From Escherichia coli (GTDB lineage: Bacteria; Pseudomonadota; Gammaproteobacteria; Enterobacterales; Enterobacteriaceae): a DNA stretch of 30,887 bases. The position numbers and the translations under genes were made by a program. Positions 6,044-7,825 of the stretch are shown piece by piece (within the stretch, counting starts at the first letter, position 1; every line of letters begins with the position of its first letter). The notes below the pieces were generated by a model. The model was not told the DNA's origin and did not search any database. It worked only from the letters and a program-made list of their open reading frames with translations. The DNA lies in assembly GCF_003334405.1 (NCBI RefSeq), contig NZ_QOWM01000028.1; one strand, given 5' to 3'.

Positions 6044-6092
6044 TTTTATCAGCGCTTACCCTGCGCTGTAACACAAAGGCTTAAGTTTCAAT

Positions 6093-6138
6093 GAGTAAAA
6101 ATGACTCGCTACCCGCAGCAGGCGAGTCATTTTTACTC
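6093..6138. promoter_or_regulatory. Perfect 17-bp inverted repeat separated by 12 bp; probable ZraR enhancer (UAS) shared by the divergent zraP and zraSR promoters
   Basis: GAGTAAAAATGACTCGC (6093..6109) and GCGAGTCATTTTTACTC (6122..6138) are exact reverse complements. They sit between two divergent sigma54-type promoters, as expected for an NtrC-family activator site. Confidence 0.65.
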
Positions 6139-6180
6139 GTTTATCATGCCAGATTACCCGTCATATCAGCGTTTCATCGT

Positions 6181-6197
6181 TGGCACGGAAGATGCAA
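6181..6197 (+). promoter_or_regulatory. Sigma54 (-24/-12) promoter for zraP
   Basis: TGGCACG-GAAG-ATGCA matches TGGCACG-N4-TTGCW with correct GG/GC spacing. It lies about 35 bp upstream of the zraP ATG, with a GGAGG RBS at 6220..6224. Confidence 0.7.
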
Positions 6198-6231
6198 TAC
6201 CCGAAGTAAGACAACCACTGGAGGATTAACC

Positions 6232-6657
6232 ATGAAACGGAACACGAAAATTGCCCTGGTAATGATGGCGCTTTCAGCAATGGCGATGGGATCGACATCT
6301 GCATTTGCTCACGGCGGACACGGTATGTGGCAGCAAAATGCCGCGCCTTTGACCAGCGAACAACAGACAGCGTGGCAGAAAATCCATAATGACTTTTACG
6401 CTCAAAGCAGCGCACTGCAACAGCAACTGGTGACGAAGCGTTATGAATACAATGCCCTGTTAGCCGCGAACCCACCGGATAGCAGCAAAATTAACGCGGT
6501 CGCCAAAGAGATGGAGAATTTGCGTCAGTCGTTAGATGAGTTACGGGTGAAACGAGATATCGCGATGGCTGAAGCGGGTATTCCGCGCGGAGCCGGAATG
6601 GGCATGGGCTACGGCGGCTGCGGTGGTGGCGGTCATATGGGTATGGGCCACTGGTAA
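6232..6657 (+). CDS. zraP: Periplasmic zinc-binding chaperone / signalling-pathway modulator
   Basis: 141-aa product MKRNTKIALVMMALSAMAMGSTSAFA... with a signal peptide and Gly/Met/His-rich termini. Start chosen at the ATG behind a GGAGG RBS and downstream of the sigma54 promoter; the longer ORF from 6091 would begin inside the ZraR inverted repeat. Confidence 0.9.
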   Translation: MKRNTKIALVMMALSAMAMGSTSAFAHGGHGMWQQNAAPLTSEQQTAWQKIHNDFYAQSSALQQQLVTKRYEYNALLAANPPDSSKINAVAKEMENLRQSLDELRVKRDIAMAEAGIPRGAGMGMGYGGCGGGGHMGMGHW

Positions 6658-6658
6658 A

Positions 6659-7360
6659 TCAGAACGTTTTCTCGTTGGGTTGCCAGCGACAGAAATCAGA
6701 GTTTGCCACTAACAGTAATTGCGAACCTTCGGGCGCTTCCAGCCATGCCACGCTGACATCAACAGAAGAGCGGCTCTGGCGGCGCTCGATATGCGCTATC
6801 GCCTGCGAATCTAAATCAGGTTTAATGGTTTGCCCTTCGCAGGTGGTCACGGTCTGTTCCATCGCATGCCAGCGCCCCTGGCGCAGCACGACTCTCCCCT
6901 GACGTAAGGCATCGCTAATCTGGCGGATCTGATCAGCACGATAACGGTATAAATCGATTTGGTCGTTAGAAAGCTGCTGCTTTTCCCCATCGGATTCACG
7001 TTGCATAAAGCTCAGATCACCGCGATCGTCAAAACGCGCGCGAATATTCACCGGCGGTTTGCTGTAAACATTGATATTGATGAGCGTGAGGTTATCGCCC
7101 TGCCAGCGATACTCTCGCGTCGTGGTATCGCCACTGCGCCACGGGCTAAACACGGCAAGCAGATGCACATTATCGCCGCTGTCTTTTCGCCAGATGCGTA
7201 CCGCGCCCTGGTCTTCAGCAAATCCACTGGCGGTAAAGGGAGGAAGTGAAGAGTTATGACTACAGGCAGTGAGAAGCAGAGCGCCAGCCAGCATCAATGA
7301 TCGACGCCAGAAAGACAAAAGGGGTGAAACCACCCCTTCGTTAAAACTGTTCACTGCCAC
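6659..7360 (-). CDS. yjaH: Uncharacterised putative lipoprotein (DUF1481 family)
   Basis: 233-aa ORF with a GTG start 6 nt after the hupA stop. N-terminal RR...LMLAGALLLTAC looks like a signal peptide with a lipobox (LTAC). Exact start is uncertain; the E. coli annotation is about 231 aa. Confidence 0.8.
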   Translation of the reverse strand: MAVNSFNEGVVSPLLSFWRRSLMLAGALLLTACSHNSSLPPFTASGFAEDQGAVRIWRKDSGDNVHLLAVFSPWRSGDTTTREYRWQGDNLTLININVYSKPPVNIRARFDDRGDLSFMQRESDGEKQQLSNDQIDLYRYRADQIRQISDALRQGRVVLRQGRWHAMEQTVTTCEGQTIKPDLDSQAIAHIERRQSRSSVDVSVAWLEAPEGSQLLLVANSDFCRWQPNEKTF

Positions 7361-7366
7361 GCAATC

Positions 7367-7639
7367 TTACTTAACTGCGTCTTTCAGTGCCTTGCCAGAA
7401 ACAAATGCCGGTACGTTAGCTGCGGCAATTTTGATTTCTTTACCGGTCTGCGGGTTGCGGCCAGTACGCTCAGCGCGGTGGTTCACTTTGAAGGTACCGA
7501 AACCAACCAGTTGTACAGCATCGCCTTCTTTCAGAGACTCAGTAATTGCAGCCAGAGTGGACTCCAGAGCAGCTTTAGCCTGGGTTTTGGACAGTTCTGC
7601 TTTCTCTGCAATTACATCAATCAGTTGAGTCTTGTTCAT
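7367..7639 (-). CDS. hupA: DNA-binding protein HU-alpha
   Basis: 90-aa [93 protein letters not shown], the HU-alpha sequence. Confidence 0.97.
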
Positions 7640-7734
7640 AAGTTATCCTTACAATGTGTTTATCGCTTGCTAAGCATCGAGTGCGACGGAAATGCCAGAA
7701 TAGCACTCTCCTGCATACACGCACCGATAGCCAC

Positions 7735-7775
7735 TTTTTTTCGCCCCCCAAATGTAGACCAGACGGGGGGCGAAA
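7735..7775. repeat. GC-clamped stem-loop (11-bp stem TTTCGCCCCCC / GGGGGGCGAAA, 15-nt loop) in the yjaG-hupA intergenic region
   Basis: Inverted repeat read directly from the sequence; preceded by T7 on the plus strand. It is not followed by a U-tract in the direction of yjaG or hupA transcription, so it is not a canonical intrinsic terminator. Confidence 0.6.
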
Positions 7776-7825
7776 GGGAAGACTCCAGGTACGACAAATC
7801 AGGCGTTAAATCACGTTTTCTGGTC

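Follow-up and report, generated by a model that had tools for sequence, protein, structure and literature searches.

Operon-internal partial terminators set unequal expression of neighbouring genes at several Escherichia coli loci, including rpsU-dnaG, rplL-rpoB and rpsO-pnp. In pyrBI attenuation, which involves a UTP-sensitive pause, the open reading frame (ORF) of the pyrL leader peptide spans the attenuator hairpin. Termination-reinitiation coupling at close stop and start codons is the subject of a review (PMC5972666), and 70S scanning is among the topics discussed in a further article (PMC9031893). The hupA-yjaH junction of E. coli was analysed in a window of 30,887 nucleotides (contig NZ_QOWM01000028.1 of assembly GCF_003334405.1; all positions below are those of this whole stretch, and all features lie on its minus strand). 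It resembles the rpsU-dnaG type of terminator in having a highly expressed upstream gene, a Rho-independent terminator and a downstream gene without an evident promoter, which would be expressed by read-through; but whereas those terminators are intergenic and precede the downstream ribosome-binding site (RBS), the favoured yjaH start precedes the terminator, whose hairpin and U-tract constitute codons 8-17. As in pyrBI, translation of the ORF would start ahead of the terminator and continue through it, and a trailing ribosome is predicted to be able to block the hairpin; unlike pyrL, which encodes a short leader peptide, the yjaH ORF is a structural gene, which a ribosome could enter only after terminating on hupA and re-initiating. 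Neither a pause signal nor a regulatory input was found at hupA-yjaH. As in coupled gene pairs, the yjaH start lies 6 nt (2-14 nt elsewhere) past the stop codon of a heavily translated gene, is non-AUG and has no Shine-Dalgarno (SD) sequence; the usual coupled pairs have no intervening terminator, whereas here a strong one lies within 21 nt of the restart codon. The arrangement is a minor variation, not described before, on known mechanisms, and since it concerns one locus and all of its components are known mechanisms, its general significance is modest.

The hupA coding sequence (HU-alpha; 7367..7639) ends in a TAA at 7369-7367, as given by the ORF list and by RefSeq for the MG1655 locus, which is identical. 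After a non-coding 6-nt spacer (GATTGC, 7361..7366), the long yjaH ORF (233 aa, 6659..7360 in the ORF list) opens with a GTG (codon 1, 7358..7360), as the initial annotation had it, and a further GTG at codon 3 (7352..7354) is the RefSeq/PGAP start (231 aa). The N-terminus of the long ORF reads MAVNSFNEGVVSPLLSFWRRSLMLAGALLLTAC-S. Further along the same frame lie a TTG at codon 15 (7316..7318), adjacent TTG and ATG triplets at codons 22-23 (7292..7297; TTG 7297-7295, ATG 7294-7292) and the lipobox Leu30-Thr31-Ala32-Cys33 (7262..7273), whose Cys codon (TGT, 7264-7262) falls just beyond the range 7280..7369 first described. The hupA stop, GTG 7360 and GTG 7354, ATG 7294 and the lipobox were all found where the initial annotation had placed them on the minus strand; the in-frame start candidates GTG 7333 and TTG 7318 were absent from it, and the terminator hairpin at 7339-7309, which separates the upstream GTGs from the lipobox, had been overlooked. 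Each of three candidate starts would leave its own N-terminal peptide: fMet-AVNSFNEGVVSPLLSFWR for 7360, fMet-NSFNEGVVSPLLSFWR for 7354 and fMet-SFWR for 7318.

The hupA intrinsic terminator lies within yjaH codons 8-17 (7309..7339). Its stem of 9 bp (5 G-C pairs) joins a 5′ arm, GAAGGGGTG (7339-7331), across a 4-nt loop, GTTT (7330-7327), to a 3′ arm, CACCCCTTT (7326-7318); the U-rich tail is TGTCTTTCT, and the stem's UUU stands ahead of the tail UGUCUUUCUG. The hairpin has a folding energy of -13.9 kcal/mol and was the sole terminator-like site found by a terminator scan of 6400-8000. Across 80 aligned sequences, 99.7% of stem cells were paired, against 44-69% in slid controls, and compensatory double-sided changes (C-G to or from U-A, and G-C to or from U-A or U-G) were seen at two stem pairs, in 8 and 12 sequences. 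Scanned against Rfam at E<=1, the stretch 6400-8000 returned no match, so the terminator region is not a described RNA family. A second helix suggested upstream by the single-sequence fold, in which GUUAAG at the hupA stop pairs with UUUAAC and the first GUG occupies a small loop, was rejected because it showed no covariation and one of its pairs was broken in 29/80 sequences. Immediately ahead of the hairpin, codons 4-7 (7340..7351) carry the motif AACAGTTTTAAC, whose AAC, AGT and TTT are identical in 72-78 of the 80 sequences, third positions included and with no codon periodicity. A related AGTTTTAA stands ahead of the hairpin in Pantoea, where it is outside the yjaH ORF, and the sequence comparison suggests that the motif probably belongs to the hupA 3′ end.

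This terminator is used in vivo. The supplementary tables of a Term-seq study (Adams et al. 2021, eLife, PMC7815308) list an RNA 3′ end at MG1655 4200605 on the plus strand, which corresponds to window position 7315 when converted through the hupA and yjaH offsets within the same table; the RNA ends ...CACCCCUUUUGU, 6 nt past the G+C stem. In supplementary files 1 and 3 of that study the end has scores of 102752, 27872 and 14561 in three conditions, together with an intrinsic-terminator score of 5.76 and a Rho score of 0.74 ('No'). A Rho-independent 3′ end from the literature thus adds to the G+C stem-loop with its U-tract and to the compensatory changes, and the terminator is real and conserved. 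The same tables class the 7315 end as 'internal' to yjaH, at position 39, as for other catalogued ORF-internal ends, and this 'ORF-internal' end is the hupA terminator. ORF-internal ends are usually read as signs of a mis-annotated start; for yjaH, the comparative data given below argue for a real, conserved overlap and against mis-annotation of the upstream start. The table passages inspected list no further same-strand 3′ end between 4200605 and 4208031, including beyond yjaH, and the DirectRNA-seq window counts in supplementary file 3 (379, 401, 349 and 274) have an ambiguous column order from which no read-through fraction is derivable. The 7315 end is given, without discussion, in the supplement of this study only; the paper was not among the results of a full-text search on the gene name. 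Since most hupA transcripts probably end at 7315, YjaH would be made only from the read-through minority.

To compare the junction across species we used 81 Enterobacteriaceae loci (80 distinct sequences for per-codon counts), which were found with a 9-sequence alignment query that returned Enterobacteriaceae only; more distant lineages were fetched singly. The hupA-yjaH spacer is 5, 6, 7 or 8 nt long in 26, 51, 3 and 1 of the 81 loci, and with this variation in length it is not under frame constraint. By contrast with the spacer, the distances within the ORF are nearly fixed when the hairpin is anchored on CCCCTTT: start to hairpin is 36 nt in 80/81 loci and 39 nt in one, hairpin to Cys is 60 nt in 79/81, with single cases of 57 and 63 nt, and all start-to-Cys indels are multiples of 3. 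Codons 2-15 lack protein-coding periodicity (entropy 0.26/0.31/0.34 by codon position), their conservation being at the nucleotide level, so that the RNA element alone can account for it, which weighs against an upstream start; a third-position excess starts only at codon 16. From there on, Trp18 is present in 79/80 sequences and Arg19 (encoded synonymously by CGT or CGC) in 77/80, Arg20 is retained where residue 19 is Cys, and every sequence inspected has at least one Arg at positions 19-20.

At least one upstream GTG or ATG is retained in all 81 species, which is weak evidence alone because only ~0.25 species would be expected to have lost both; for the same reason we set aside the 'either/or' keeping of the two GTGs as an argument. 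Codon 1 is GTG in 72/80 sequences, ATG in 4 and GTA in 4, and codon 3 is GTG in 75/80, GCG in 4 and GTA in 1. Codon 3 is the sole upstream start, codon 1 being GTA, in two Salmonella enterica subspecies (L028, L037) and two Leclercia (L031, L034). GTG 7333 (codon 10) was rejected as a start: it lies within the stem and is specific to the E. coli clade (GTG in 8/80 sequences, GCN in the others). Codon 15 is TTG in 71/80 sequences (72/81 loci) and TCG in 9/80, the latter spanning two genera, Citrobacter and Kluyvera. In three Kluyvera (L064, L066, L075) there is no canonical in-frame start from the hairpin to 4 codons before the Cys, and these species retain Arg19/20 and an intact gene. None of the 81 species lacks both an upstream start and TTG15.

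Beyond these 81, the hairpin also lies within the ORF in nine lineages (Atlantibacter, Dickeya, Proteus, Morganella, Edwardsiella, L088, L089, L090 and L093), all of which read its 3′ arm as CCC-CTT-TTN in the same frame, with hairpin-to-Cys distances of 16, 18, 20, 24 and 25 codons. An in-frame ATG or GTG lies 2-14 nt past the hupA stop in 8 of the nine, Morganella having TTG only; codon 1 is the sole upstream start in Atlantibacter and Edwardsiella. In L090, where the equivalent of codon 15 is TTA (as it is in L089; seven of the nine have TTG), the upstream GTG is the sole canonical start that leaves an n-region. L093 has a positive n-region (M-K-K-I-I-R) upstream of the hairpin; against the upstream start, Morganella has only its TTG there and L089 has a good downstream ATG (MQRLL...). 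By contrast, where the terminator is separate (Pantoea, L091 and L094), yjaH follows a spacer and begins with an ATG of its own, preceded in L094 by GGAG-N7. An in-frame ATG or GTG that is open into the hairpin was found in 10/13 lineages (9 of them genuine) against 2.6 expected, with a Poisson-binomial P of ~1e-5 that is optimistic, since the 13 lineages are not phylogenetically independent. A start and frame are thus conserved across enterobacterial families, and the ORF together with its start appears to be held in frame through the hairpin, with codons 1-15 presumably translated.

The initial annotation had described a charged n-region, a hydrophobic core and an L-T-A-C lipobox, and the comparison bears this out as a conserved lipoprotein-type signal peptide. 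Trp18-Arg19-Arg20 (7301..7309) form the positive end of the n-region, residues 21-30 are hydrophobic, and the L-[TS]-A-C motif is conserved at L in 78/80, T/S in 78/80, A (Ala32) in 80/80 and C (Cys33) in 80/80 sequences; Cys33 is also kept without exception by 24 diverse DUF1481 homologues whose identity falls as low as 27%. At +2 stands Ser34 (75/80) and not Asp, and by the +2 rule Ser at this position predicts outer-membrane sorting. YjaH is accordingly like Lgt/LspA/Lnt lipoproteins in its positive n-region, hydrophobic core, L-[TS]-A-C motif and Cys at +1, and from its sequence it is predicted to be a lipoprotein precursor that would be lipid-modified; literature searches on yjaH and DUF1481 returned no relevant report of lipid modification. 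DUF1481 (Pfam PF07356) matches residues 44-229 over model positions 1-186 of 186 (i-Evalue 1.1e-72), NCBIfam models gave no match to YjaH, and a fold search of the YjaH model against the PDB gave no significant match. In the AlphaFold2 model (mean pLDDT 90.1), residues 1-13 are disordered, residues 14-31 form a helix and the folded domain begins at 42. The Cys is residue 33 from GTG 7360, 31 from 7354 and 19 from TTG 7318, the first two near the upper limit of about 15-35, and homologues with separate terminators have signal peptides of 17-20 residues. With an upstream start, the YjaH n-region, at ~20 residues, would be far longer than in usual lipoprotein signal peptides, would contain Glu and Pro and would be partly dictated by RNA structure and not by protein function. 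A 32-residue lipoprotein signal peptide with such a 20-residue n-region is atypical, which counts against an upstream start.

None of the start candidates has a usable SD sequence, which fits re-initiation after hupA: GTG 7360 and GTG 7354 have best anti-SD duplexes of -1.4 and -1.5 kcal/mol, compared with -5.9 for the hupA start. As had been anticipated, any RBS would lie within hupA, since positions -20 to -1 of GTG 7360 are in its coding sequence, and there is no SD pairing there; initiation at either GTG would then have to depend on ribosomes arriving from hupA. The distance from stop to restart codon (6 nt in E. coli, 5-8 nt in the 81 loci, 2-14 nt in the distant lineages) and the lack of an own RBS are those of a coupled pair. 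The 'tight translational coupling to hupA' proposed at the outset does not hold as stated, because a functional hupA terminator stands 21 nt downstream of the GTG; given the very strong 3′ end at 7315 in the Term-seq tables, coupling would be possible on read-through transcripts only. The supplements of INRI-seq, TRAINSPOTTER, TetRP and Giess et al. 2017 contain no yjaH entry that maps its start. The choice of start had also been regarded as unsettled from sequence. The comparison excludes ATG 7294 and favours 7360/7354 over TTG 7318, making the upstream start adjoining the hupA stop the best-supported initiation site by comparative evidence; 7360 and 7354 remain inseparable, with 7360 most likely the (ancestral) start and 7354 an equivalent neighbour that may act as an alternative or back-up.

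On the explanation that we favour, ribosomes that have just finished hupA would most likely begin yjaH by termination-reinitiation at one of these two GTGs. The ORF would then pass through the Rho-independent terminator, its arms and U-tract specifying residues 8-17 (E-G-V-V-S-P-L-L-S-F) within an n-region of unusual length, followed by W-R-R, the hydrophobic core and L-T-A-C; the resulting lipoprotein signal peptide would have 32 residues, ahead of Cys33 and with Ser at +2. The ribosome would have to unwind the hairpin on read-through transcripts, and the terminator would act as an operon-internal attenuator that ties low YjaH to very high HU-alpha expression. We consider this explanation reasonably probable.

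Placing the main E. coli start at TTG 7318-7316 instead, so that translation gives MSFWRRSLMLAGALLLTAC with an 18-residue signal peptide, MSFWRRSLMLAGALLLTA, ahead of the Cys, would turn the 14 upstream codons into untranslated hupA 3′ UTR that is open by chance. Coding-type third-position variation does begin at codon 16, right after this TTG, the codon is present in 72/81 Enterobacteriaceae and 7/9 distant embedded lineages, the hairpin phase CCC-CTT-TTG is exactly that which frames UUG, and the signal peptide would match the 17-20 residues of separate-terminator homologues; it is also the NCBI start for some Atlantibacter proteins (219 aa) and one gene caller's start for P0066. The SD-like AAGGGGUG upstream of it (-7.6 kcal/mol), however, forms the 5′ arm of the hairpin (-13.9 kcal/mol), with 12 nt between its end and the TTG. 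Moreover, 9 Enterobacteriaceae species carry TCG at this codon and L089 and L090 carry TTA, although the gene is intact in them; neither Kluyvera nor L090 offers a substitute start. Chance openness leaves unexplained both the stop-free in-frame ATG or GTG by the hupA stop in 9/13 lineages, against 2.6 expected, and the positive n-region upstream of the hairpin in L093, and we judge this start unlikely. Initiation at both sites, by re-initiation at the upstream GTG and at TTG 7318, would yield two precursors of the same mature lipoprotein, with selection keeping either route and different lineages relying on different ones; cleavage at Cys33 would make the two products equivalent in function. 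Both codons are widespread and not universal, none of the 81 species is without both, and database annotations are already divided between them; but this proposal is less parsimonious, has no direct evidence and meets the same problem of TTG accessibility, so that we give it little weight.

A start at ATG 7294 (or TTG 7297), with a mature protein that is not a lipoprotein or has a minimal signal peptide, would use the strongest E. coli start codon and lie beyond the mapped 3′ end at 7315. Codon 23, however, is Met in only 13/80 sequences (Ala in 25, Thr in 21 and Trp in 8) and codon 22 is TTG in 17/80; there is no SD (-1.5 kcal/mol); and, as the initial annotation had foreseen for the ATG, too short an n-region would be left, the ATG giving MLAGALLLTA, 10 uncharged residues before the Cys (10-11 for ATG or TTG). 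The conserved W-R-R and the exclusively 3n indels between hairpin and Cys imply that codons upstream of ATG 7294 are under frame constraint, and we excluded it as the main start, there being hardly any chance that this reading is correct. It is likewise improbable that the hairpin is no terminator for yjaH transcripts, with yjaH having its own promoter and the 7315 end being a processing product. A sigma-70 promoter scan of 6400-8000 found 0 sites, which is uninformative because the hupA promoter, which must exist there, was also missed, and an insensitive scan leaves room for an own promoter. Yet the stem-loop and U-tract, the tabulated score of 5.76 and Rho independence, and a 3′ end 6 nt past the stem are the signature of intrinsic termination; a promoter upstream of the GTG would still require read-through of the hairpin, and the U-tract and ATG 7294 are only 17-20 nt apart.

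Returning to the upstream GTG start, the overlap itself might be functional. A re-initiating ribosome close behind RNA polymerase could melt the 5′ arm of the terminator and thereby cause read-through, and the stem and U-tract might have been co-opted ('overprinted') as Leu, Phe, Pro and Gly codons of the signal peptide, an arrangement kept in at least four Enterobacterales families; we offer this tentatively and regard it as doubtful. If it were true, yjaH transcription would be gated by its own translation initiation, in proportion to HU-alpha translation.

Taken together, these comparisons would explain why databases are split on the YjaH start (233, 231 and 219 aa, and 221, 220, 217 and 215 aa in Edwardsiella). 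A single RNA stretch would serve as both a working intrinsic terminator and signal-peptide coding sequence, a clean natural case of such dual use, and hupA-yjaH would be a simple system in which to study a translating ribosome against a terminator hairpin. The locus would also illustrate a way of tying an envelope lipoprotein of low abundance to a gene that ranks among the most highly expressed in the cell.

The yjaH gene lies downstream of hupA in the E. coli K-12-type order hemE-nfi-yjaG-hupA-yjaH/zraP, in which hemE through yjaH are all minus-strand genes, at a locus present in 5,426/5,426 complete E. coli genomes. The hupA stop (TAA, 7369-7367) is followed by a 6-nt spacer and the GTG at 7360 that opens the longest yjaH ORF (233 aa; N-terminus MAVNSFNEGVVSPLLSFWRRSLMLAGALLLTAC-S), while a second in-frame GTG at 7354 is the RefSeq/PGAP start (231 aa). 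An in-frame TTG-ATG lies at 7297-7292, and the lipobox Cys codon at 7264-7262. Every feature described in the initial annotation was confirmed at its given coordinates; its list of candidates lacked two further in-frame codons, GTG 7333 and TTG 7318. At the other end of the gene, a single nucleotide separates the stop codon of yjaH (6659-6661, minus) from that of the convergent zraP (6655-6657, plus; region 6655-6661), no terminator-like hairpin was detected between the two genes in the terminator scan, and yjaH-zraP is included among the ExcludonFinder neighbouring-gene pairs with transcriptional overlap. Another start-site discrepancy is seen in zraP, for which the longest ORF is 188 aa from ATG 6091 (6091-6657, plus) versus 141 aa in RefSeq (MKRNTKIAL...).

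An intrinsic terminator of textbook form (GAAGGGGUG-GUUU-CACCCCUUU, then UGUCUUUCUG; 7339-7309, minus strand) separates the upstream GTGs from the lipobox; it is the sole terminator-like site found in a scan of 6400-8000, with a folding energy of -13.9 kcal/mol. When 81 Enterobacteriaceae loci, comprising 80 distinct sequences, were aligned, its 9-bp helix was paired in 99.7% of cells, compared with 44–69% for register-shifted control helices, and two helix positions carried compensatory double changes (C-G<->U-A in 8 sequences; G-C<->U-A/U-G in 12). Published Term-seq data (Adams et al. 2021 eLife, PMC7815308) map a transcript 3' end to MG1655 4200605(+), scored at 102,752, 27,872 and 14,561 across three conditions; its Rho score is 0.74 ('No'), and its intrinsic-terminator score of 5.76 clears the paper's predictive threshold of >3.0. 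With the coordinate convention calibrated on the hupA entry of the Term-seq table, this end falls at window position 7315 (minus), so that the RNA ends ...CACCCCUUUUGU; the terminator is, on this basis, used in vivo. The authors' pipeline classed the end as 'internal' to yjaH (offset 39), and the site is found in the supplement alone. Within the table portions examined, there was no same-strand 3' end between 4200605 and 4208031, which suggests that read-through transcripts are rare. Weaker 3' ends were listed in the hupA 5' leader (4200251/4200253, ~7669/7667, minus) and inside hupA (4200389, offset 108, ~7531, minus). The initial interpretation is thus borne out in part: the start call itself is sound, but the "tight coupling" to hupA previously proposed for yjaH must be heavily qualified, since a functional terminator intervenes.

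Directly upstream of the stem, AACAGTTTTAAC (7340-7351, minus) was near-invariant in the 80 Enterobacteriaceae sequences, synonymous positions included, and a related AGTTTTAA precedes the Pantoea hupA terminator (locus L086, about 1112-1121), where it falls outside the yjaH ORF. This motif resembles a conserved feature of the hupA transcript's 3' end, perhaps a site for RNase E, Hfq or ProQ, or terminator A/U context.

Whether the start is mis-annotated or the ORF truly crosses the terminator was tested comparatively in 81 Enterobacteriaceae species. The spacer from the hupA stop to codon 1 was 5, 6, 7 or 8 nt long (26, 51, 3 and 1 loci), and so is without frame constraint. By contrast, all length changes from codon 1 onwards were multiples of 3: the distance from codon 1 to the CCC codon of the hairpin 3' arm was 36 nt in 80 loci, the exception (39 nt) having a 3-nt loop insertion, and that from CCC to Cys was 60 nt in 79 loci, with single loci at 57 and 63 nt. 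GTG was the commonest triplet at codon 1 (72, against ATG 4 and GTA 4) and at codon 3 (75, against GCG 4 and GTA 1). A start codon was retained at one or both positions in 81/81 species, which is weak evidence alone because only ~0.25 double losses are expected.

Beyond Enterobacteriaceae, yjaG-hupA-yjaH synteny is retained (hupA-yjaH only, on three short contigs). Nine other lineages also carry the hairpin within the ORF, invariably read as CCC-CTT-TTN: Atlantibacter, Dickeya lacustris, Proteus mirabilis, Morganella morganii, Edwardsiella tarda and four metagenomic lineages. Their hairpin-to-Cys spans of 16, 18, 20, 24 and 25 codons imply several independent indels, all frame-preserving. An in-frame ATG/GTG lies 2-14 nt past the hupA stop in eight of them, within spacers that seem unrelated in sequence by eye; in Morganella the upstream start is TTG only. 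In locus L090 the sole canonical start leaving an n-region is the upstream GTG, and locus L093 encodes M-K-K-I-I-R-[hairpin: G-A-M-V-P-L-L-F]-I-S-S-L-I-T-G-C, with a positive n-region upstream of the hairpin and a hydrophobic core encoded by it. When the spacer of each of 13 lineages was shuffled, 2.6 lineages were expected to have an in-frame ATG/GTG open into the hairpin, versus 10 observed (9 meaningful; Poisson-binomial P about 1e-5, which is optimistic because lineages share ancestry). Pantoea, L091 and L094 have the ordinary layout, in which the ATG start, part of GGAG-N7-ATG in L094, follows the terminator after a spacer and the signal peptide has 17-20 residues. Dual use of the terminator as coding sequence appears conserved over at least four enterobacterial families. 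NCBI start calls differ within single genera: 233 and 219 aa in Atlantibacter (cluster P0121), and 221, 220, 217 and 215 aa in Edwardsiella (cluster P0156), several beginning within the hairpin loop.

Other evidence points against an ORF that crosses the terminator. The conservation of the extension is RNA-driven, since codons 2-15 lack the periodicity of coding sequence (entropies of 0.26/0.31/0.34 at the three codon positions) and the conserved residues E-G...P-L-L correspond to the stem arms and U-tract. AAC-AGT-TTT is near-invariant, third positions included, and a third-position excess starts only at codon 16. The support for its translation thus comes from frame and start-codon evidence rather than from selection on the protein.

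Anti-SD complementarity is essentially absent at GTG 7360, GTG 7354, TTG 7297 and ATG 7294 (-1.4 to -1.5 kcal/mol, versus -5.9 at the hupA start). An SD-less GUG 6 nt past the stop of a very heavily translated mRNA is a classic setting for termination-reinitiation, which we infer for yjaH after hupA. TTG 7318 does have a complementary AAGGGGUG (-7.6 kcal/mol), but this stops 12 nt short of it and forms the hairpin 5' arm. Moreover, TCG replaces this U-tract TTG (codon 15) in 9 species of Citrobacter and Kluyvera. Kluyvera georgiana, K. ascorbata and K. sichuanensis have no in-frame ATG/GTG/TTG from the hairpin to 4 codons before Cys, retain W-R/C-R and an intact gene, and could draw their conserved Arg n-region only from the upstream GTGs. 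We therefore regard TTG 7318 as unlikely to be the main start, and dual initiation from it and an upstream GTG as slightly less likely again. ATG 7294 is barely credible, being poorly conserved, lacking an n-region and at odds with the frame constraint on the codons before it; that yjaH has a promoter of its own, or that the 3' end arose by processing, is very improbable. The start ambiguity is narrower than initially stated, with GTG 7360 and GTG 7354 inseparable: the former is the position retained outside Enterobacteriaceae (Atlantibacter, Edwardsiella), the latter the upstream start retained in Salmonella and Leclercia.

The prediction that YjaH is a lipoprotein is sound: Ala32 and Cys33 of the lipobox (L-[TS]-A-C) occur in 80/80 Enterobacteriaceae sequences, and Cys33 is also invariant in 24 diverse homologues. 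Under the established +2 rule, Ser at +2 makes outer-membrane sorting the predicted fate of YjaH. Pfam DUF1481 spans residues 44-229, and the confident AlphaFold2 model (mean pLDDT 90.1, pTM 0.80) has residues 1-13 disordered, a helix at 14-31 and, starting at residue 42, a folded domain. Foldseek with this model gave no match at E below 0.1 among solved structures, and the modelled fold (residues 42-233, 6659-7237) appears to be without an experimentally solved relative. A 2009 functional atlas placed YjaH close to LPS-core pathways (PMC2672614). Two variant records were also seen: P0002 (300 aa, a single ENA record), in which one assembly has HupA fused in frame to YjaH (...GKEITIAAAKGVVSPLLSFWRR...), as would be expected if a deletion had joined hupA to codon 8 of yjaH, and P0005 (211 aa, 50 member sequences), in which a different N-terminus, MRCYRNLLPAC..., replaces the signal-peptide core. 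Either could be an artefact of assembly or a variant of natural or engineered origin.

Taken together, yjaH probably starts at an upstream GUG by reinitiation on hupA read-through, with translation through the terminator. hupA would be transcribed at a high level, with the majority of transcripts ending at 7315; on the read-through minority, ribosomes that had completed hupA would restart at GUG 7360 (or 7354), unwind the terminator and translate it as residues 8-17. The product would be a 32-residue (or 30-residue) lipoprotein signal peptide cleaved at Cys33, and the layout would act as an internal attenuator, holding a low YjaH output slaved to HU-alpha. In this respect hupA-yjaH would work like an operon-internal partial terminator and translational coupling combined, and would share with pyrBI-type ribosome-mediated attenuation the geometry of an ORF spanning a terminator; that translation here modulates termination is a tentative and rather doubtful proposal. 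Unlike in these systems, the hupA-yjaH terminator would form part of the downstream structural gene's own signal-peptide coding sequence, and the layout would represent a previously undescribed variant assembled from known mechanisms.
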